Shown here in pieces: positions 1 to 9,212 of a stretch of 64,000 bases of DNA. The notes under the pieces were generated by a model. It did not search any database. It was not told where the DNA came from and saw only the letters and a list, made by a program, of their open reading frames with translations. The DNA comes from Desulfosoma sp. Its GTDB lineage: Bacteria > Desulfobacterota > Syntrophobacteria > Syntrophobacterales > DSM-9756. Numbering within the stretch: position 1 is the first letter of the stretch; every line of letters begins with the position of its first letter. The DNA lies in the NCBI GenBank assembly GCA_037481835.1, contig JBBFKW010000002.1, positions 160,001 through 224,000 on the forward strand. The letters run 5' to 3'. The position numbers and the translations under genes were made by a program.

Positions 1-37
1 CATCCCATGCCGTTCGCGAAGCATCGCGGCTTTTGGC

Positions 38-66
38 TTGACAGGGATCGTGGCCTTGGGTAAGGA
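38..66 (+). promoter_or_regulatory. Putative sigma70 promoter for the leader/paaK operon
   Basis: TTGACA at 38-43, 17-nt spacer, TAAGGA at 61-66 (weak -10). Confidence 0.5.
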
Positions 67-132
67 ACCGTTCTGAACACAGGATACGGCCACGATCCGG
101 GAATTGGAGCTCACTCAAAAAGCGGCGCGGCG

Positions 133-219
133 ATGATGACGCGGTTCTTTCGTTTCTACTTTATCGGCGAAAAGGGGGGCTTCTTTTTTAGGAAGTCTAC
201 CCATGGCCGAGCGGGGTAG
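133..219 (+). CDS. Phe-rich attenuator leader peptide, 28 aa: MMTRFFRFYFIGEKGGFFFRKSTHGRAG
   Basis: Translated by hand from ATG133 to TAG217-219; 7 Phe and 1 Tyr in two clusters; overlaps the antiterminator arm. No strong SD visible. Confidence 0.8.
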   Translation: MMTRFFRFYFIGEKGGFFFRKSTHGRAG

Positions 220-276
220 GCGAAAGGAGCCGGTCGCACAGCCCCGCTCAAGCGGGATAACCAGCCATGGGTAGAC
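195..276 (+). promoter_or_regulatory. Antiterminator hairpin of the attenuator
   Basis: gtctacccatggc (195-207) is the exact reverse complement of gccatgggtagac (264-276); gagcgggg (209-216) pairs with ccccgctc (242-249). Confidence 0.8.
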
Positions 277-305
277 GAGATCGGAACCCATGGCTTTTCG
301 TTTTT
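263..305 (+). terminator. Attenuator terminator 1
   Basis: 10-bp stem agccatgggt (263-272)/acccatggct (286-295) followed by tttcgttttt. Confidence 0.8.
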
Positions 306-346
306 AGAGGCCGTGGGTTCGTGGAACCGACGGCCTTTGCGTTTTT
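306..346 (+). terminator. Attenuator terminator 2
   Basis: Stem aggccgt-g-ggttc (308-320)/gaacc-g-acggcct (324-336), 3-nt loop, followed by ttgcgttttt. Confidence 0.75.
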
Positions 347-400
347 GGCGGACACACTCCCCCAAACTACGGCTCCCTCACACAAAGGAGGAACGATGCG

Positions 401-1702
401 ATGATCTACGACATGGAATATGAAACCCTACCCCGCGAGGCCCTGGAGGCCATTCAACTCAGAAGACTCCAGAACACGCTCCAACGCGTCTATGCCACGG
501 TTCCCTTTTACAGGAAACGGTTCGACGAAGTGGGGTTCAAACCCTCGGAACTGAAATCCCTTGACGATTTGCGGCGCGTGCCGTTCACCACCAAGCAGGA
601 TCTTCGGGACAACTACCCTTTCGGGCTTTTTGCCGTGCCCATGGAAAACGTGGTCCGCATTCACGCCTCGTCGGGTACCACCGGTAAACCCACGGTGGTT
701 GGCTACACGGCCCGGGACATCGAGACCTGGGCGACTCTCATGGCCCGGTCCCTTTCCGCCGCCGGAGCCACTCGAGGCGACATCATCCATAACGCCTACG
801 GGTACGGTTTGTTCACGGGGGGGTTGGGCGTCCACTACGGTGCGGAAAAGCTGGGCGCCTCGGTCATTCCCATCTCCGGGGGAAACACCAAGCGGCAGAT
901 CATGATCATGAAGGATTTCGGCGCCACGATCCTCACCTGCACACCGTCCTACGCCCTGCACTTGGCGGAAGTTGCCCAGGAGATGGGGGTGGAGTTCAAG
1001 GACCTGAAATTTAAGGCGGGTCTTTTTGGAGCCGAGCCTTGGTCCGAGAGGATGCGGGAGGAGATCGAAAGGAAGCTTCATTTGGACGCCGTGGACATTT
1101 ACGGGCTGAGTGAAGTCATCGGGCCCGGCGTTGCGGTGGAGTGCCTGGAAGCCAAAGCGGGACTCCATATCTTCGAAGATCATTTCATTGCCGAAATCAT
1201 CGATCCGGCAACGGGAGAAGTTTTGCCTCCGGGATCCGTGGGCGAACTCGTCTTCACCTCCATCACCAAGGAAGCCTTTCCCGTCATCCGTTACCGCACG
1301 CGGGACATCACGAGCCTGAACCCCGAACCGTGCGTGTGCGGCCGGACCTTCGTGCGCATGAACCGCGTGAGCGGCCGAAGCGACGACATGCTCATCATCC
1401 GGGGCGTCAACGTGTTCCCGTCCCAGATCGAAAGCGTTCTCATGGAGATTCAAGGGGTCGAGCCCCACTACCAGCTCATCGTGGACCGGGAAGGGAACCT
1501 GGATATGCTCACGGTCCTTGTGGAAGTCGGGGAATCGGCCTTTTCCGACAAGGTGAAGACCCTCCAAGACCTTGAAAAGGTGATCACCAAGAACATCAAG
1601 GAATACCTTGGAATTTCGGCCAAGGTGAAACTGGTGGAACCCAAGACGATCGCCCGCAGCGAAGGCAAAGCGGTTCGGGTGATCGATAACAGAAAACTTT
1701 AA
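401..1702 (+). CDS. paaK: Phenylacetate-CoA ligase
   Basis: [11 protein letters not shown]-loop, DIYGLSE, RYRTRD and C-terminal SEGKAVRV motifs; SD aaggagg upstream. Confidence 0.92.
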
Positions 1703-1733
1703 CGCGGGCTTCGCACAAGAAAGGAGGCCGAGG

Positions 1734-2165
1734 ATGCGCGTGGAACAGATTTCGGTCTTTTTGGAAAACAAGGCGGGACGTCTCGCCGAAGTGACCCGGG
1801 TCTTGTCGGAAGCGGGGGTGAACATCCGAGCCTTGTCCCTTGCCGACACGTCGGATTTCGGGATTCTACGCCTCATCGTCAACGATAACGAAAAGGCCAA
1901 GGAGGCCCTCAAGGCCAACGGCTTTACAGTCGGAAAGACCGACGTCGTGGCGGTGGAAGTGGAAGACCGCCCCGGGGGGCTCCACAAGATTCTGGACATC
2001 CTCCGAAAGGCCGGCATCAACGTGGAGTACATGTACGCCTTCGTGCAGCAGAGCGGGAACAACGCCGTGATCATCTTCCGATTCGACAACTTGGACGAGG
2101 CGGTCCGCGTTCTTACGGAAAACGGCGTGACGGTCATCAACGGAAGCCGGGTTTACAGCATGTAG
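1734..2165 (+). CDS. Tandem ACT-domain amino-acid-binding protein
   Basis: [13 protein letters not shown] and [12 protein letters not shown] signatures; typical partner of paaK; SD aggagg. Confidence 0.9.
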
Positions 2166-2257
2166 CGGGTGGCTCCGGCGGGCCGGATGCCGCTCGGTCA
2201 CGGCACCGGGGCGGCCCGCCGGATGGATGAACATGGACCAAGACAGGAGGAAGGGCG

Positions 2258-3418
2258 ATGGAAAGAAGGGCAAGACCGTGGATCTTCTGGATGGCGGCCG
2301 TGGCGGCGGTTCTGGGACTTGTGGTCGGGCCGAAGGCGGCTTTCAGCGCCGAGCCTTACAAGATCGGAGGCGTTTTTTCCATCACCGGCTCTTCCTCTTT
2401 TCTCGGGGATCCCGAGAAGAAAAGCCTGGAGATGGCCGTCGATGAGATCAACGCCCAGGGGGGGATCGACGGCCGGCCGTTGGAGGCCGTCGTCTACGAC
2501 ACGGAAGGGGATCCCACGAAAGCCGTGCTGGCGGTCAACAAGCTGATCAGCAAGGATAACGTCGTGGCCATTATCGGGCCCAGCCTGACCCCCACGACCT
2601 TGGCGGTCATGCCCATTGTGGAGCGGGTCCAGATGCCGCTCATCAGCTGTGCGGCCGGGATCCAAATCGTGGAACCCGTCAAGCCCTACGTTTTCAAGAC
2701 GGCCCAGAGCGACGTCCTGGCTGTGGCCGCCATCTACAAGCACATGCAGAAGCACGGCATCAAGAAAATCGGGATTCTCACGGTGACCAACGCCTTCGGG
2801 GTGAGCGGTCGGGATCAGCTGGTCAAGCAGGCCCCGGATTACGGCATTCAGATCGTCAAGGAAGAGGCCTACGGGGCCGGCGACACGGACATGACGGCGC
2901 AATTGACGAAGATCAAAGGGGAAAATCCCGATGCCGTCGTGTGCTGGGGGACCAATCCGGGGCCGGCCGTGGTGGCCAAGAACATGCGCCAGTTGGGCTT
3001 TAACGCACCCCTGTACCAAAGCCACGGGGTCGCCTCGCCCAAGTTCATCGAACTGGCGGGGGAAGCGGCTGAAGGCATTCGGCTTCCCACGGGAAAGATT
3101 CTCGTGGCGGACCTTTTGCCCGACATGGACCCCCAGAAGGCCGTCCTGAAAAAATACATTGTCGACTTTAACCAGCGCTACGGCGGCGGGGTTTCGGGCT
3201 TCGGCGGTTACGCCTACGACGCCATGCACATCCTTGCCAAGGCGCTCAAGGGAACCGGCGGCGATAAGGCCAAGATTCGGGACAACCTGGAAAAGATCGC
3301 CAACCATGTGGGTATCAGCGGAATTTTCACCATGACGGCCAAGGACCACAACGGTTTGGGGCCCGAGGCTTTCGTCATGGTGGAAATCCGAAACGGCACG
3401 TGGAAACTGCTGGACTAG
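2258..3418 (+). CDS. Liv-type ABC transporter substrate-binding protein
   Basis: Signal peptide; EINAQGGIDGRPLE..YD and IIGP motifs of periplasmic binding protein type 1. Confidence 0.9.
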   Translation: MERRARPWIFWMAAVAAVLGLVVGPKAAFSAEPYKIGGVFSITGSSSFLGDPEKKSLEMAVDEINAQGGIDGRPLEAVVYDTEGDPTKAVLAVNKLISKDNVVAIIGPSLTPTTLAVMPIVERVQMPLISCAAGIQIVEPVKPYVFKTAQSDVLAVAAIYKHMQKHGIKKIGILTVTNAFGVSGRDQLVKQAPDYGIQIVKEEAYGAGDTDMTAQLTKIKGENPDAVVCWGTNPGPAVVAKNMRQLGFNAPLYQSHGVASPKFIELAGEAAEGIRLPTGKILVADLLPDMDPQKAVLKKYIVDFNQRYGGGVSGFGGYAYDAMHILAKALKGTGGDKAKIRDNLEKIANHVGISGIFTMTAKDHNGLGPEAFVMVEIRNGTWKLLD

Positions 3419-3436
3419 AGGGGATAGGCCGTCTTC

Positions 3437-4315
3437 ATGAGCGAATTCCTGCAGTTTCTCCTCACGGGGATCACCACCGGGGCGATCTACGGCCTGATCG
3501 CCCTGGGGTTCAACGTGCTCTACAACGCCACGGATTTGATCAACTTCGCCCAGGGCGAATTCGTCATGCTGGGCGGCCTGTGCTTCTATTCGCTGGGGTC
3601 GGCTCTTGGATGGCCTGCGGCCGCGGCTTTCGCCGCCGCCGTCTGCATCGTCTCCCTGTTGGGGCTGCTGCTGGAAAGGGTGGCGCTGCGCCCGGTCAAG
3701 AAACCGGAACCTCTCACCCTCATCATCATCACCGTGGGAGCGAGCATTTTCCTTCGGGGTGTGGCCATGCGGCTGTGGGGCAAGGACCCGTACAGCGTCC
3801 CGGGGCTCACGGCGTCCGTGGAGCCCGTTCGGATCTGGGGCGCGGCGCTCATGCCCCAGAGCTTGTGGATCGTGGGCATCGTTGTCGCTTTCATGACGGG
3901 TTTGCACCTTTTCGGCAAACGCACCTTGACCGGCAAGGCCATGGAGGCCTGTGCCATTCACCGCAACGCCGCCTGGATCCTGGGCATTCCCAGCGATCGC
4001 ATGGTGCTTTTGGCCTTCGCCTTGAGCGCCGGGCTGGGGGCTGTGGGGGGGGTGATCATCGCCCCCATTACCATGTGCAGCTACGATATGGGCACCATGC
4101 TGGGCCTGAAGGGCTTTTGCGCGGCCATGTTGGGAGGCTTGGGCAGCCACTGGGGGGCGGCGCTGGGCGGCGTGCTCCTCGGTGTGCTGGAATCCCTCGG
4201 GGTGGGCTATTTTTCCTCCGGCATCAAGGACGCCGTCGCCTTTCTCGTGCTCCTGGTGATCCTCATCGTGCGACCCGCCGGCCTTCTCGGGGCCTCTGCG
4301 GTGAAGCGTTTTTAG
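3437..4315 (+). CDS. livH: Liv-type ABC permease
   Basis: GAIYGLIALGF, INFAQGEF and GFCAAMLGGLG motifs. Confidence 0.9.
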   Translation: MSEFLQFLLTGITTGAIYGLIALGFNVLYNATDLINFAQGEFVMLGGLCFYSLGSALGWPAAAAFAAAVCIVSLLGLLLERVALRPVKKPEPLTLIIITVGASIFLRGVAMRLWGKDPYSVPGLTASVEPVRIWGAALMPQSLWIVGIVVAFMTGLHLFGKRTLTGKAMEACAIHRNAAWILGIPSDRMVLLAFALSAGLGAVGGVIIAPITMCSYDMGTMLGLKGFCAAMLGGLGSHWGAALGGVLLGVLESLGVGYFSSGIKDAVAFLVLLVILIVRPAGLLGASAVKRF

Positions 4316-4334
4316 GCGGGGGAAAGGAGGGGCG

Positions 4335-5291
4335 GTGGGTTCTCGACAGAGGCTGTACGGGACTGCGATTTTTTCCCTGGGAATGGCGGCGCTCGGCGTG
4401 GCGGTGTCCAACCCCTATGAACAGCAGTTGCTGACCATTATCGGCATCCACACCCTGTTGGCTCTGGGCCTGAACATGCTCATGGGCTATGCGGGCCAGA
4501 TTTCCCTGGGCCATGCCGCCTTTTTCGGCCTGGGCGCCTACGGCACGGGCATTCTCACCACCCACTTTCAATGGTCCCCGTGGGCGTCTTTGCCCGCCGT
4601 GCTCGTATTCGCCGCCCTCTCGGGCTACCTCATCGGCCGTCCCATCCTTCGCCTTTCGGGGTATTACCTGGCCATGGGGACCCTCGGCCTGGGCATCATC
4701 GTCCATGTCCTCTTTCGAGAATGGGACACGTTCACCGGCGGGGCTTCGGGCCTGGTGGGCATTCCTCCCCTGAGCGTGGGGCGACTGATCGTGGGGCTCG
4801 GGCGAAGCGGCTTCTTCGCGGTGTGGGCGACCGTGGTCCTGTTTTTCGTCCTCTGCGGCCGAGTGGTGGATTCGCGCATCGGCCGCGCCCTGCGCGCCTT
4901 GGGGGACAGCCAGGGCGCTGCGGCCGCTTCCGGCATCCATACCGCCCATCTCAAGGCGGCCATTTTTTCCTTCAGCGCCGTCATGGCGGCACTGGCCGGG
5001 TACCTCTACGCCCATCTTCTGGGATTTATCAGCCCCAGTTCTTTCGATTTTCTCATGTCCATCCGCATGGTCACCATGGTGGTCATCGGCGGTATGGCCA
5101 GCATTTGGGGTTCCCTTCTCGGCGCCTCGGTCATCACTCTCCTCCCCGAATGGCTCCACGTATTTTCCGATTACGAAATGATGGTCTACGGATTGATCCT
5201 CATGGGAGTCATGATTTTTCTGCCCCAGGGGCTCACGCGAGGGGTCCTGGATGCCCTCCAGCGCGCCCGGGCGCGAACGGCTTCTTCGTAG
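4335..5291 (+). CDS. livM: Liv-type ABC permease
   Basis: GYAGQISLGHAAFFGLGAY and LRLSGYYLAMGT motifs; GTG start after aaggagg. Confidence 0.9.
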   Translation: MGSRQRLYGTAIFSLGMAALGVAVSNPYEQQLLTIIGIHTLLALGLNMLMGYAGQISLGHAAFFGLGAYGTGILTTHFQWSPWASLPAVLVFAALSGYLIGRPILRLSGYYLAMGTLGLGIIVHVLFREWDTFTGGASGLVGIPPLSVGRLIVGLGRSGFFAVWATVVLFFVLCGRVVDSRIGRALRALGDSQGAAAASGIHTAHLKAAIFSFSAVMAALAGYLYAHLLGFISPSSFDFLMSIRMVTMVVIGGMASIWGSLLGASVITLLPEWLHVFSDYEMMVYGLILMGVMIFLPQGLTRGVLDALQRARARTASS

Positions 5292-5318
5292 AAGCGAAGG
5301 GGGAAGGAGACAAGGTTT

Positions 5319-6092
5319 TTGAGCGGCCTCAACCCATTTCTGACCATCGACGGCGTCTCCAAGGCCTTCGGGGGCATCCAAGCCCTCTATCAGGTCTCCT
5401 TCGCAGTGCAGGCGCGGCACATCCATGCCCTGATCGGCCCCAACGGGGCGGGAAAGACGACTCTTTTCAACGTGATCTCAGGGGCCTTCGCGCCCGATGA
5501 GGGTTCCATCCGGCTGGACGGCAAAGACATTCAGGGGCGTCCCATGCATGAGCTCGTGCGGCGAGGCATCGCGCGCACCTTCCAGAACGTGGAGCTTTTC
5601 GGGAGCATGAGCGTTTTGGAAAACGTTCTTGTGGGATGCCACACTCGCACACGTTGTGGGCTCATCGGGGCCATGGTGCGATGGCCGTGGGTTTCCCGCG
5701 AGGAACGCTGGGCTCGAGAACGCGCCATGGAACTCCTAAACATGGTGGGCCTTGCAGACTCGGCCATGAAAAGAGCCGTGGACCTTCCCTTCGGGTGGCA
5801 GCGCCTTGTGGAAATCGCCCGGGCCTTGGCCGGCGATCCCAAGCTCTTGCTTCTGGACGAGCCCGCTGCGGGACTCAATGCCGTGGAAACCGAAAGGCTG
5901 TCCCGGCTCATTCAAGAGATTCAAGCCCTTGGCGTTACGGTCCTCCTGGTCGAACACGACATGAACCTCACCATGGACATTTCCGACCGCATCGTGGTCC
6001 TGGACCGCGGCCGAAAGCTTGCGGAAGGAACGCCTCGGGAAATCCAATCCAGCGACGCGGTCATGGAAGCCTACTTGGGAAAGAAACACTGA
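5319..6092 (+). CDS. livG: Liv-type ABC ATPase
   Basis: GPNGAGKTT, IARTFQN, LLLLDEPAAG and VEHDM motifs; TTG start. Confidence 0.9.
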   Translation: MSGLNPFLTIDGVSKAFGGIQALYQVSFAVQARHIHALIGPNGAGKTTLFNVISGAFAPDEGSIRLDGKDIQGRPMHELVRRGIARTFQNVELFGSMSVLENVLVGCHTRTRCGLIGAMVRWPWVSREERWARERAMELLNMVGLADSAMKRAVDLPFGWQRLVEIARALAGDPKLLLLDEPAAGLNAVETERLSRLIQEIQALGVTVLLVEHDMNLTMDISDRIVVLDRGRKLAEGTPREIQSSDAVMEAYLGKKH

Positions 6093-6114
6093 GAGGGGAG
6101 GGGTCCGCCGACCC

Positions 6115-6861
6115 ATGCTGATCGTTCGCAATCTTCGGGCTGGCTACGGCCGCATCGAGGCGCTCCACGGGGTGAGTCTTTCCGTGAGGCACGGGGAAAT
6201 CGTGGCCATCGTGGGGGCCAACGGGGCGGGAAAGAGCACCCTGTTGCGGGCCGTTGCGGGGTTGATCGTGCCGTGGCAGGGAGAGGTTCTCTTTGAGGAG
6301 CGGTCCCTTGCGGGGACGAAACCGCCGGCGATCGTCGCCGCGGGAATCGGCTTGGTCCCGGAAGGGCGCTGGTTGTTCCCCCCCATGAGCGTCCTGGACA
6401 ATCTCCGCCTGGGGGCTTACTTGAGGCTGCGCCGCGGCGAAAAAGAGGCCGTGCGGGAGGACTTGGAGCGCGTCTTTGAGCTCTTTCCCATTCTCGCCGA
6501 ACGCCGAAAACAGCCGGCGGGGTCCCTTTCCGGCGGCGAGCAGCAGATGCTGGCCATTGCCCGAGCCCTTATGAGCCGCCCCAAGATGCTTCTGCTCGAC
6601 GAACCGTCCACGGGCCTAGCCCCGCTCCTCGTGGAAAAGATCTTTGAAACCATCGTCCAGCTCAACGGGGAAGGGATCACCTTCCTCCTCGTAGAACAGA
6701 ACGCCCGGGCGGCTTTGGCCGTGGCGAGCCGCGGTTACGTCCTGGAAACCGGCCGGATGGTCCTCCAGGGAAAGGCGGGGGACCTCCTCGAGGATCAAGA
6801 AGTGAAGCGAGCCTACCTGGGTAAGGACTATCGTGAGTTTGCGGAAGGGAGGGCCCGATGA
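6115..6861 (+). CDS. livF: Liv-type ABC ATPase
   Basis: GANGAGKST, LSGGEQQM and VEQN motifs; start taken at ATG6115 (MLIVRNL). Confidence 0.9.
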   Translation: MLIVRNLRAGYGRIEALHGVSLSVRHGEIVAIVGANGAGKSTLLRAVAGLIVPWQGEVLFEERSLAGTKPPAIVAAGIGLVPEGRWLFPPMSVLDNLRLGAYLRLRRGEKEAVREDLERVFELFPILAERRKQPAGSLSGGEQQMLAIARALMSRPKMLLLDEPSTGLAPLLVEKIFETIVQLNGEGITFLLVEQNARAALAVASRGYVLETGRMVLQGKAGDLLEDQEVKRAYLGKDYREFAEGRAR

Positions 6862-8132
6862 GCGATGCAGGAAACGGCAACGGGGAATGGCTGCCGCCGG
6901 CGGAACGGCGCCAGCAACAGCTGGAGCGGCTCCAGATTGTGTGCAATCGCGCGTACAAGAACGTGCCGTTTTACCGGAATCGGTTTCAGGCGGCGGCCCT
7001 TTCCCCTCAGGACATCGGCAGCCTGGAAGACGTTCGGCGCCTGCCTTTTACGGAACGCCGCCACTTCGGCGAACATTACCCCTACGGGCTTTTTGCCGTG
7101 CCGTTACGGGACATCGTGCGCATCCACACGGCGCCGGGCATCGGCGGCAGTCTGGCGGTGAGCGGCTACACGGCCCGGGACCTGAAGATGTGGAAGGAGA
7201 TGGTTGCTCGAGCCCTGAGGGCGGCCGGGGTCTCAGTGGACGATATCCTCCAAATCGTCCTCCATCCCGGGTTGGCCAACTGGGGCCGGGATTACAAGGA
7301 CGGCGCCGAGGCGCTTCAGGCGGGCGTCATCCCCCTGAATGCCCTGCACCTGAGCAAACAGATCATGGTTCTGCGGGACTACAAGACCTCCGTGCTCATC
7401 ACCACGCCGACTTCGGCCGTCCAAATCCAGGAACTCTTGTTTTCCTCGGACATCAATCCCAACGAACTTTCTCTGAAGACCCTGATTCTCGTCGGGGAGC
7501 CGGCGTCACAGGAGCTGCGCCGCAGGATCGAGGAGCAGCTGCACGTGCGCACATGGCAGCATTACGGGTTGAGCGAGGTGCCCGGGCCGGCGGTGGCCTA
7601 TGAGTGCGAAGGGCACGATGGGCTTCATGTGTCCGAAGACCATTTCCTCGTGGAGGTGCTGGATCCGATAACCCTTGAGCCCGTACCCGAGGGAGAAAGC
7701 GGCGAATTGGTCCTCACGAGTCTCACCATCCAGGCATTCCCTCTCATTCGGTTCCGCACCGGAGACCGGGTGAGGGTCCTTGCCGAGGGCTGCCCGTGCG
7801 GGAGGACCCTGAGGCGGCTGGAGTGGCTTCCCGACCGGGTGGACGACCTCCTTGTCATTCAGGGGGTGAAGATTGACAAGGACCAGGTTGCCGTTCGAGT
7901 GGCCCAGACGCTCGGGTTTGCTCCCCGGAAGCTCTCGGTGCACCTTGTCCGGCAAGGCGGCTACAAGGCTCTGGAAGTGCAGTTGGGCATGGAAGAAAAC
8001 CTCTTCAGCGACGAGATCAAGGAATTGGAGCGGCTCGTTCGAAAGACGGCCTTCGAGCTCCGGCAGGAATTCGGCGTTCCGGTGGAAGTGCGCCTCCTGG
8101 AGGGCCCCAGCGTGGAGGCGGCTTTCCCATGA
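6858..8132 (+). CDS. Divergent phenylacetate-CoA ligase paralog, possibly catalytically inactive
   Basis: Colinear with 401..1702 (YPYGLFAVP, IVRIH, YGLSE, IRFRTGD), but the P-loop is replaced by TAPGIGGS and the C-terminal GKA is missing; ATGA overlap with livF. Confidence 0.8.
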   Translation: MSDAGNGNGEWLPPAERRQQQLERLQIVCNRAYKNVPFYRNRFQAAALSPQDIGSLEDVRRLPFTERRHFGEHYPYGLFAVPLRDIVRIHTAPGIGGSLAVSGYTARDLKMWKEMVARALRAAGVSVDDILQIVLHPGLANWGRDYKDGAEALQAGVIPLNALHLSKQIMVLRDYKTSVLITTPTSAVQIQELLFSSDINPNELSLKTLILVGEPASQELRRRIEEQLHVRTWQHYGLSEVPGPAVAYECEGHDGLHVSEDHFLVEVLDPITLEPVPEGESGELVLTSLTIQAFPLIRFRTGDRVRVLAEGCPCGRTLRRLEWLPDRVDDLLVIQGVKIDKDQVAVRVAQTLGFAPRKLSVHLVRQGGYKALEVQLGMEENLFSDEIKELERLVRKTAFELRQEFGVPVEVRLLEGPSVEAAFP

Positions 8133-8166
8133 TTTTCCTCGGTCGGGGTCAATCCCAGGGCCACTC

Positions 8167-8197
8167 GAAGGTTGGGGTGAGCGCAGCGAACCCCGAT
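8167..8197 (+). repeat. REP-like palindrome, copy 1
   Basis: gaag-gttggggtgagcgcagcgaaccccga; matches copies at 9463, 9527, 23753 and 25227. Confidence 0.75.
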
Positions 8198-8297
8198 ACC
8201 TGCACAAACAGCGCAGGACGAGCGCCCATGGAAGTTGGTGTCCCTATGCATGATCACAAAAGCCGGCATTTTTGCAAACCATGGAGGACAGCGGTCT

Positions 8298-9212
8298 ATG
8301 GATGTTTTGGTCGTAGGAACGGGCGCCATCGGCGGCTACTACGGAGGCCGGCTGGCTCAAGCTGGGGCGAGGGTCTCCGTGGTGGCCCGTTCGGACTACG
8401 AGGTCGTGGCTGAAGACGGGATTCGCATTGAAAGCCCGGCGGGCGATTTCCATTTTCGTCCCGATCGGGTGGTTCGAACCGCCGCGGCTTTCGGCGACTT
8501 TCCCGATGTGATTCTTGTGGGCCTGAAGGTTTTGGAAGAAATCCGCACGCCGGATCTGATTCGGGATGCCGTGGGGCCCAAGACCGCCGTCCTTCTCATC
8601 CAAAACGGGGTGGATATTGAACCTGCGGTGGCCGACGCCTTTCCCAACAATGAGATCCTGAGCGGGCTGGCGTTTATCTGCGTGCACCGCACGGCGCCGG
8701 GGAAAGTGCTGCACCAGGACTACGGCCGCCTGGTTCTCGGCCGGTACCCCGGCGGCCCCTCGGAGACAGCCCACAGGCTTGCCGAAATTTTTCGCCGGGC
8801 CGGGGTGCCGTGCGAAGTCACCGAAGACGTGGTCACGGCCCGATGGCAGAAACTGGTCTGGAACGCGCCCTTCAATCCCATGTCCGTGCTGTGCGGGGGG
8901 GCGAGCACCCAAGATATGCTCGCTCATGAAGAGACGACCCGCCTTGTGCGCGCGGTCATGGAAGAGGTGTGCGCCGTGGCGGCGGCGACGGGACATGCCC
9001 TTCCTCCGGACGTGGTGGATCGCATGATCTCCGACACGCGAAAGATGACCCCTTACAAGACAAGCATGCTCTTGGACTTCGAGGCGGGCCGCCCCATGGA
9101 AGTGGAAGCCATCGTGGGCAACGCCGTGCGCATCGCTCGGAGCCTTCACGTTCCGGTTCCCCACATGGAAACCCTGTATGCGCTTTTGAGCGGCTTGAAG
9201 GAACGGGCCTGA
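8298..9212 (+). CDS. panE: 2-dehydropantoate 2-reductase family
   Basis: VVGTGAIGG, IQNG, WQKLVWN, TSMLLD and MEVEAI motifs; start at ATG8298. Confidence 0.85.
   Translation: MDVLVVGTGAIGGYYGGRLAQAGARVSVVARSDYEVVAEDGIRIESPAGDFHFRPDRVVRTAAAFGDFPDVILVGLKVLEEIRTPDLIRDAVGPKTAVLLIQNGVDIEPAVADAFPNNEILSGLAFICVHRTAPGKVLHQDYGRLVLGRYPGGPSETAHRLAEIFRRAGVPCEVTEDVVTARWQKLVWNAPFNPMSVLCGGASTQDMLAHEETTRLVRAVMEEVCAVAAATGHALPPDVVDRMISDTRKMTPYKTSMLLDFEAGRPMEVEAIVGNAVRIARSLHVPVPHMETLYALLSGLKERA

Follow-up and report, generated by a model that had tools for sequence, protein, structure and literature searches.

Organization of the locus

The window analyzed here is a 64,000-nt stretch of a Desulfosoma sp. contig; positions refer to the window, and window features given with a strand lie on the + strand. 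Its first structural gene (401..1702, +) encodes a PaaK-like phenylacetate-CoA ligase, assigned by Pfam AMP-binding and AMP-binding_C_2; against NCBIfam TIGR02155, the gene scored 637.1 bits, just below the cut-off of 646.3. Its ribosome-binding site, AAGGAGG, was read directly at 385..391 (+). Pfam further identified an ACT-pair protein (1734-2165) and a Liv-type ABC transporter consisting of a binding protein, two permeases and two ATPases (2258-6861). The second PaaK-like gene (6858-8132) is more divergent, with 328 bits to TIGR02155, and within 6858-9212 it is followed by a ketopantoate-reductase-family (ApbA/PanE) gene.

The upstream gene has the same orientation and does not extend into the window. 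Between this gene and the hexamer TTGACA lies a terminator-like hairpin (14-29; TCGCGAAGCATCGCGG then CTTTTGG), so the leader seems to be its own transcription unit. TTGACA (38..43, +) is a -35-like hexamer, read directly, that could serve as the promoter of the leader transcript, with TAAGGA following 17 nt later at 61-66. The hexamer occupies the equivalent position in all 15 homologous loci listed, and the leader promoter was not called by a consensus promoter scan. We infer from these positions that TTGACA and TAAGGA form the leader promoter.

The leader ORF, taken from the ORF listing (133..219, +), has 28 codons and encodes MMTRFFRFYFIGEKGGFFFRKSTHGRAG, with eight Phe residues and one Tyr. 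It would act as the sensor, on which the ribosome would stall when Phe-tRNA is scarce. The Shine-Dalgarno sequence of the window ORF is poor. Of the 15 loci listed in the search for relatives, 13 have a Phe-rich ORF with a matching C-terminal half; the same holds for 34 of the 80 PaaK loci taken from public genomes, and no leader ORF was recognised in the other 46. This is the only codon-biased ORF of the leader; the ORFs listed between the first terminator and the start codon coincide in part with the hairpins and lack this bias. Its stop codon lies at 217-219, and the distance from the stop codon to segment A, described below, is kept among homologues.

Two further structures involve the leader ORF. 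Hairpin P1 (177..198, +; GGGCTTCTT / AGGAAGTCT) includes the FFF codons, which fall in the 5' arm and loop, and runs into the beginning of segment A. In P1, 88% of alignment cells are paired and one pair goes from CG (26) to UA (9); its role may be that of a pause or lock hairpin. In the MFE fold of the full leader, the Phe-codon region 142-168 pairs with 206-232 (142..232, +), an analogue of the classical '1:2' pairing that would lock segment A away as long as the leader is ribosome-free. In alignment A1, which was made with MAFFT from 44 leaders that precede PaaK-like genes in records titled Syntrophobacterales and Desulfobacterales, 62.5% of the cells of this pairing are paired compared with 38-57% in slid controls, so comparison argues only faintly for this putative pairing.

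Two predicted terminators and their cross-pairing

Between the leader ORF and the first structural gene, there are two GC-rich hairpins with T-rich tails. Terminator 1 (T1; 263..305, +) has a stem of 10 perfect bp (263-272/286-295), a 13-nt loop and the tail TTTCGTTTTT, which runs to 305. Terminator 2 (T2; 305..346, +) is built from 305-314 + 316-320 paired with 324-328 + 330-339, giving a stem of 15 bp around one G-G mismatch with a 3-nt loop, and its T-rich tail (336-346) starts within the 3' arm of the stem. The two stems are separated by a gap of approximately 10 nt. T1 folds at -19.2 kcal/mol (z -4.5) and T2 at -24.6 kcal/mol (z -4.8). A simple consensus terminator scan, which required a loop of 3-8 nt and an unbroken stem, called neither hairpin because of the 13-nt loop of T1 and the internal mismatch of T2. 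Both hairpins probably act as terminators, judging by their stems and tails.

We divided this region into alternately pairing segments. Segment B (264..276, +) is the 5' arm of T1 and can pair with either A or C. Segment C (284..298, +; gaacccatggctttt) comprises the 3' arm of T1 and the first U residues after it and has either B or D as its partner. Segment D (306..320, +; agaggccgtgggttc) is the 5' arm of T2; it can pair with E to form T2 or with C, in which case C would be the antiterminator of T2. C:D (284-298 with 306-320) extends over 15 contiguous bp, three of which are G-U pairs, and the hairpin 280-324 that contains it folds at -23.9 kcal/mol (z -5.9). For T1, T2 and the C:D hairpin alike, none of 200 shuffles folded as well, and all three therefore exceed chance. 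Only approximately four residues of the 10-nt U-run after T1 are engaged in C:D. The initial annotation had placed a second terminator directly after the first and had proposed that 284-298 can pair with 306-320 over 15 contiguous bp including G-U pairs; direct reading and folding bore out both statements, the latter at exactly these positions.

Segment A and the two exclusive states

The upstream partner of the 5' arm of T1, absent from the initial annotation, is segment A (195..207, +), which is contained in the leader ORF, with 9 nt between its end and the stop codon. A:B (195-207 with 264-276) is a perfect complementarity of 13 bp. The whole 194-278 hairpin has a folding energy of -51.3 kcal/mol (z -6.7), far better than its shuffles. 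In this read-through fold, an inner hairpin (209..249, +; GAGCGGGG / CCCCGCTC stem) stacks under A:B, and the stretch it occupies varies in length among the homologues in alignment A1.

The four pairings fall into two exclusive states, namely, A:B + C:D (read-through) or B:C + D:E (both terminators). When ribosome footprints were imposed at 11 positions and MFE folds were computed at length 339, each of the 11 folds was one of these two states and none was mixed. The read-through fold was obtained for stalls at F5, F6, F17 and F18, and the termination fold for stalls at F8 to F10, at F19, at later codons and at the stop codon. Because the equilibrium fold is OFF at F8-F10 and F19, the ON state would need kinetic trapping or stalls at particular codons. 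As to the masking of A by an unstalled ribosome, the stop-codon footprint speaks for it through geometry and folding only. In the ribosome-free full leader, the Phe-codon half is paired with 206-232, A is locked in P1, and both T1 and T2 are formed.

When A is free, the energies of the two states are almost the same (-75.2 versus -73.6 kcal/mol). The findpath barriers are 13.3 kcal/mol from C:D to D:E and 17.3 kcal/mol from A:B to B:C. Given the near-equal energies and the barrier of 13.3 kcal/mol, the order of transcription should decide and the choice should be kinetic. Since D is made before E, a free C would be expected to capture D first.

Conservation in orthologous leaders

Every one of the other eight genomes in the family contains recognisable leader DNA, as do several genomes from a second family of the order. 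Two terminator-like hairpins, 20 to 45 nt apart, were present in 42 of 46 leaders scanned. For the comparative analysis, L012 was left out since no ORF passed the filter applied, and L002, L005 and L017 were left out as apparent duplicates of L029, L030 and L059. All four pairings are conserved in alignment A1, and each shows compensatory pairs. In A:B, 92.1% of cells are paired with six compensatory pairs (24 cells), compared with 29-51% in slid controls, and in C:D, 87.1% are paired with six compensatory pairs (22 cells), compared with 29-53%. B:C reaches 96.8% with five compensatory pairs, and D:E reaches 84.3% with 12 compensatory pairs in 68 cells. These cell counts exceed the number of independent events, as many compensatory cells are common to close kin.

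The pattern of variation in D bears on whether C:D itself is maintained. Mean column identity is 0.81 in D compared with 0.68 in E, and it reaches 0.91 in B. Much of the variation in D consists of C/U changes facing a G in C (one C:D pair reads GC in 22 leaders and GU in 22), so that both partners of D stay paired. The C:D duplex averages -16.8 kcal/mol compared with -6.7 for shuffled D, the weakest orthologue still reaching -11.4, whereas the B:E pairing, which the model does not need, averages -8.7.

A T-rich run after T1 is kept in 40 of the 44 orthologues; it is gone in L004, L092 and L105 and weak in L039. On close reading, the three leaders without the run retain the B:C hairpin; C:D is preserved in all four, with energies of -13.1 to -22.4 kcal/mol. 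Where the U-tract of T1 is lost, nothing visible other than C:D connects the leader with the one terminator. The preservation of C:D in these leaders and the higher conservation of D than of E point to a direct constraint on C:D. A T-rich tail after T2, counted as at least six T in the first nine bases after column 335, is present in 41 of 44 orthologues. The count is affected by shortened regions in L078 (five T) and L086 (four T), and L034 has six T in a tail shortened to eight bases.

Some observations count against C:D. In seven orthologues, C:D contains a C-A mismatch where D:E is compensated, and in most clades outside the genus of the window, C:D (approximately -13 to -19 kcal/mol) is weaker than D:E (-18 to -25 kcal/mol). 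RNAalifold on alignment A2, from which L054 and L078 were omitted because their T2 cut is unclear, returned a short P1, A:B and D:E together and not one pure state.

Two loci differ in their downstream part. L068 (Desulfobacterales) keeps a Phe-rich leader ORF and has neither hairpin before the PaaK start; this may be a deletion, which would de-repress the operon. L002, from a genome of the same genus, has short tandem repeats (units like CGATTTACGACTTCA) inserted between T2 and the PaaK start, and the repeat run ends in a second copy of the 3' arm and tail of T2.

Probable paralogous aromatic attenuators

A covariance model built from P1 + T1 + T2 found four more leaders in the same genome (L110, 1501-1642, +; L111, 1501-1666, +; L112, 1501-1655, -; L113, 1501-1646, +), each with two cross-pairing terminators like those of the window leader. 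Their ORFs are Tyr-, Trp- or mixed aromatic-rich. The Tyr-rich one (..FYYGYGY..) precedes a Liv-type binding protein, the two Trp-rich ones (..FWWCWWWC.. and ..RWSWWWQAW) precede a DAHP synthase in one case and a TrpB-like gene in the other, and the mixed Phe/Tyr/Trp one (..FYFYYGWYY..) precedes another DAHP synthase. At E <= 0.001, the model matched 85 of 151 sampled genomes of the phylum. As every hit has two hairpins by construction, this result demonstrates that the design is widespread and not that it is universal.

We analyzed 33 primary hits, after dropping the 14 secondary or opposite-strand hits among the 47 in A3. The first downstream gene encodes DAHP synthase in 15, a DeoC-family aldolase in seven, a class I/II aminotransferase in three, PALP (TrpB-like) in two, a PaaK-like ligase in two, a Peripla_BP_6 binding protein in two, anthranilate synthase I in one and a TPR protein in one; 32 of the 33 come from families compatible with the synthesis or uptake of aromatic amino acids. 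The T1 tail has at least five U in eight residues in 28 of the 33 paralogues and fewer in five. Taken with the orthologues, in which the U-tract of T1 is missing or weak in four of 44, this makes T2 the constant terminator and T1 an optional one.

All four pairings recur in the 33 paralogues, four of which lie in the genome of the window; 91.8% of their C:D cells are paired compared with 31-49% in slid controls. Permuting the rows of D gave 86.9 +/- 1.0, and none of 500 permutations reached the observed value. The arms vary in sequence from one paralogue to another, with C changing in step with D. One C:D core position reads CG in 17, UA in seven, UG in six and GC in one, and compensatory changes in C:D were found in both sets, the 44 orthologues and the 33 paralogues. 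Comparison of homologues, which the initial annotation had named as a check on the pairing, thus came out in favor of C:D in orthologues and paralogues alike. In L144, the CCAUGGG-type core is replaced by CCCCGGG/CUCGGGG/CCCCGAG in B, C and D alike. Cognate C:D duplexes are more stable than non-cognate ones (-17.8 versus -15.5 kcal/mol; 0/2000 permutations). However, B:E is also better in cognate pairs (-14.6 versus -13.5), so part of the C:D signal reflects the mere likeness of T1 and T2. Even so, in 30 of 33 loci the by-product pairing B:E is the less stable of the two.

In the frame of the leader ORF, the segment A motif GUCUACCC gives K-S-T in the window and V-Y-P in the aldolase leaders, and the conservation of this motif in differing frames indicates a constraint on the RNA and not on the peptide. 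In L120, L121, L124, L128 and L129, the aromatic-rich ORFs before DeoC-family aldolase genes end in V-Y/C-P-P-P. The Pro codons result from a frame difference, as these ORFs do not read the conserved A segment GUCUACCCGCCGCC in the frame used in the window. Translation might be slowed by such a poly-proline stretch itself, located where the ribosome has to clear segment A.

We also considered whether arms of the type GCCRTGGG belong to a generic terminator repeat, in which cross-pairing would be automatic, and rejected this idea: the 3.6 Mb contained six such T-run hairpins, all six in amino-acid leaders. A loose genome-wide terminator scan gave 2420 terminator-like sites and 29 tandem pairs; four of the 29 looked like clean paired terminators, all of them paralogous attenuators, and the window's own pair was missed by the scan. 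On contig C1 (162526-162700; L115), a Leu-rich ORF (..LSLLLLLS..) and a single GGCCATGGG/CCCATGGCC terminator precede a LeuA-like gene, so that an attenuator with one terminator and comparable arm sequences is also present in this genome.

A putative mechanism and its alternatives

After analyzing the folding and comparative data, we propose that the leader is probably a Phe-sensing, ribosome-mediated transcription attenuator in which the 5' half of the leader, A, B, C, D and E form a chain of alternately pairing segments. With ample Phe-tRNA, the ribosome would reach the stop codon (217-219) and cover A. B:C would then form T1, and a polymerase that escapes T1 would meet D:E as T2. When the ribosome stalls on the Phe codons, A would be free and would pair with B as soon as B is made. 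C, left without a partner, would pair with D, which is transcribed before E; E would be left single, neither terminator would form, and the polymerase would enter the paaK-ACT-ABC transporter operon. In this model, the leader ORF is presumed to be translated and stalling on it to set the state, and two terminators in series would be expected to lower the basal level. Every sequence-level feature of a leader-peptide attenuator was found, including antiterminators backed by covariation (A:B versus B:C and C:D versus D:E). The initial annotation had suggested that sequestering the 5' arm of T1 would free its 3' arm for the 5' arm of T2. The two-state outcome of all 11 footprint folds and the conserved C:D support this relay, as far as folding and alignment can speak for it.

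It is unlikely, in our judgment, that only one of the two terminators works, as in a his-type attenuator in which B:C merely keeps C from D, T2 is the sole attenuator and the C:D relay is intact. This would account for the leaders in which the T1 tail is absent, weak or short of five U (four of the 44 orthologues and five of the 33 paralogues), and the 13-nt loop of T1 is long for an intrinsic terminator. Moreover, C:D includes pairs between the first four U after T1 and the purine-rich 5' flank of D, which may be why these U have been kept. However, the run in the window is 10 nt long, of which C:D uses approximately four, a T-rich run follows T1 in the large majority of orthologues (40/44), and the 10 perfect bp of the T1 stem fold at -19.2 kcal/mol. 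We think it very improbable that T2 is an unregulated back-up or insulator that arose by duplication of T1, with C:D a relic and the operon expressed otherwise. B does resemble D and C resembles E, and B and E are complementary, at a mean of -14.6 kcal/mol that is better in cognate than in non-cognate pairs. Nevertheless, a constitutive T2 of -24.6 kcal/mol located 55 nt before the start codon would silence the operon, and the gap between T2 and the start codon holds the ribosome-binding site, with no promoter-like hexamers seen there. A relic would also fit poorly with D being more conserved than E, with C:D exceeding B:E (in 30 of 33 loci, and at -16.8 versus -8.7 in the orthologues), with the retention of C:D in lineages that lack the T1 tail, and with a likeness of T1 and T2 that is kept across the phylum and in paralogues with changed arms such as L144.

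A switch set by a protein, a tRNA or a small ligand on the leader RNA, with the Phe-rich ORF incidental, would explain the nucleotide-level conservation of P1 and the A region and the weak Shine-Dalgarno sequence of the window ORF. Against it, the N-terminal halves of the ORFs diverge and yet remain Phe/Tyr-rich, the Trp- and Tyr-rich ORFs of the paralogues precede Trp or general aromatic genes, the distance from the stop codon to A is kept, and no Rfam riboswitch or T-box matched at E <= 1. We regard such a switch as extremely unlikely.

Comparison with known systems

Tandem riboswitches, T-boxes and attenuators, such as the tandem TPP riboswitches, thrZ and mgtCBR, use serial terminators for sharper or deeper repression, and in tandem riboswitches and attenuators each terminator has its own sensor. 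The window leader differs from these systems: no sensor of its own was found for each terminator, there is one leader ORF, and T2 would be set via the freed arm of T1. Leaders of the pheL type have a single terminator. They control genes for Phe synthesis or charging, whereas the window leader precedes a PaaK-like ligase and an ABC transporter. Within what the available text on the pheA and pheST leaders of Gammaproteobacteria (pheL; Rfam Phe_leader) describes, a leader peptide rich in Phe codons controls an intrinsic terminator by alternative pairing (PMC3082878), and the Phe-rich peptide and the alternative pairing are shared with the window leader. In some Gammaproteobacteria, the rimP-leader has a second terminator in tandem ahead of the first, together with a possible antiterminator (PMC2965389); as described in the available part of that source, it has neither a leader peptide nor cross-pairing between its terminators.

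The closest likeness is with the his operon attenuator of Escherichia coli and Salmonella (hisL; Rfam His_leader). The original his attenuator model is said to have been put forward by Johnston and co-workers in 1980. To our knowledge, the CD hairpin of the his leader lacks a U-tract. According to the available portion of PMC10989985, the his leader has six segments, of which AB/CD/EF form in termination and BC/DE in read-through, and the last hairpin, EF, alone is the attenuator. As far as that text goes, the run of codons for the regulating amino acid and the two-step chain are common to both systems, and the window leader shows the same type of chain: OFF consists of the leader hairpin, B:C and D:E, and ON consists of A:B and C:D. 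With AB/CD/EF and BC/DE described in this way, the domino is a known principle. The initial annotation had contrasted its relay with classical attenuators that use a single terminator. That contrast is correct in itself; the relay is nevertheless not new, since the available account of his contains the same chain. In contrast to his, the middle hairpin of the window family has a U-tract (40/44 orthologues), through which one sensor would set two serial terminators, and the amino acid, the taxon and the regulated genes also differ. We therefore narrow the claim of novelty to one part: the middle hairpin of a his-type chain would also be a terminator, in a new aromatic-attenuator family of Desulfobacterota.

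Searches for earlier descriptions were consistent with a new family. No Rfam leader family (Phe_leader, His_leader or others) matched window 1-5000 at E <= 1, and none matched six related loci at E <= 0.1. The single Rfam match in window 1-5000 was a chance miRNA match inside a coding region and was discarded. In the full-text literature accessible to us (main texts, mostly from journals outside subscription), the family is not described, and neither is the control of two cross-paired terminators by one peptide; the accessible literature on the aryl-acid route does not describe the leader family either.

Biological significance

Most known cases of leader-peptide attenuation, a textbook mechanism, come from Gammaproteobacteria and a small number of other groups. 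Our data point to a large attenuator family that has no Rfam model in sulfate-reducing and syntrophic Desulfobacterota. Its expression platform, in which one sensor would act on two serial terminators with a shared arm, goes beyond the classical descriptions. If both terminators work, the arrangement would offer a natural way of keeping basal expression very low with a single sensor, relevant to RNA engineering and to how attenuators are tuned.

The regulation also bears on the function of the genes. Because attenuation switches on when charged tRNA is scarce, the PaaK-like ligase, the ACT protein and the ABC transporter would serve Phe/Tyr supply and not degradation. The indolepyruvate oxidoreductase genes of the Tyr-leader paralogue are likewise marked as a supply route. 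That paralogue lies on contig C21 (20788-29601, partly L146), where a one-strand operon behind the Tyr-rich leader comprises a binding protein, four ORFs whose sizes and positions resemble those of two permeases and two ATPases, a PaaK-like ligase and the alpha and beta subunits of indolepyruvate ferredoxin oxidoreductase, IorA scoring above its NCBIfam cut-off. The formation of aromatic amino acids from aryl acids is a known pathway, and the gene content of the C21 operon would fit its induction by starvation.

On a broader reading, to which we give about an even chance, these leaders form an old, phylum-wide class in Desulfobacterota in which one stall turns off two real terminators through a five-segment domino. 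The U-tract of T1 would then be an evolvable knob for leak, and the PaaK, indolepyruvate oxidoreductase and Liv-type operons would be starvation-induced routes to Phe/Tyr from aryl acids. If this reading is true, repression would be the product of two terminators, and induction would cost one decision.
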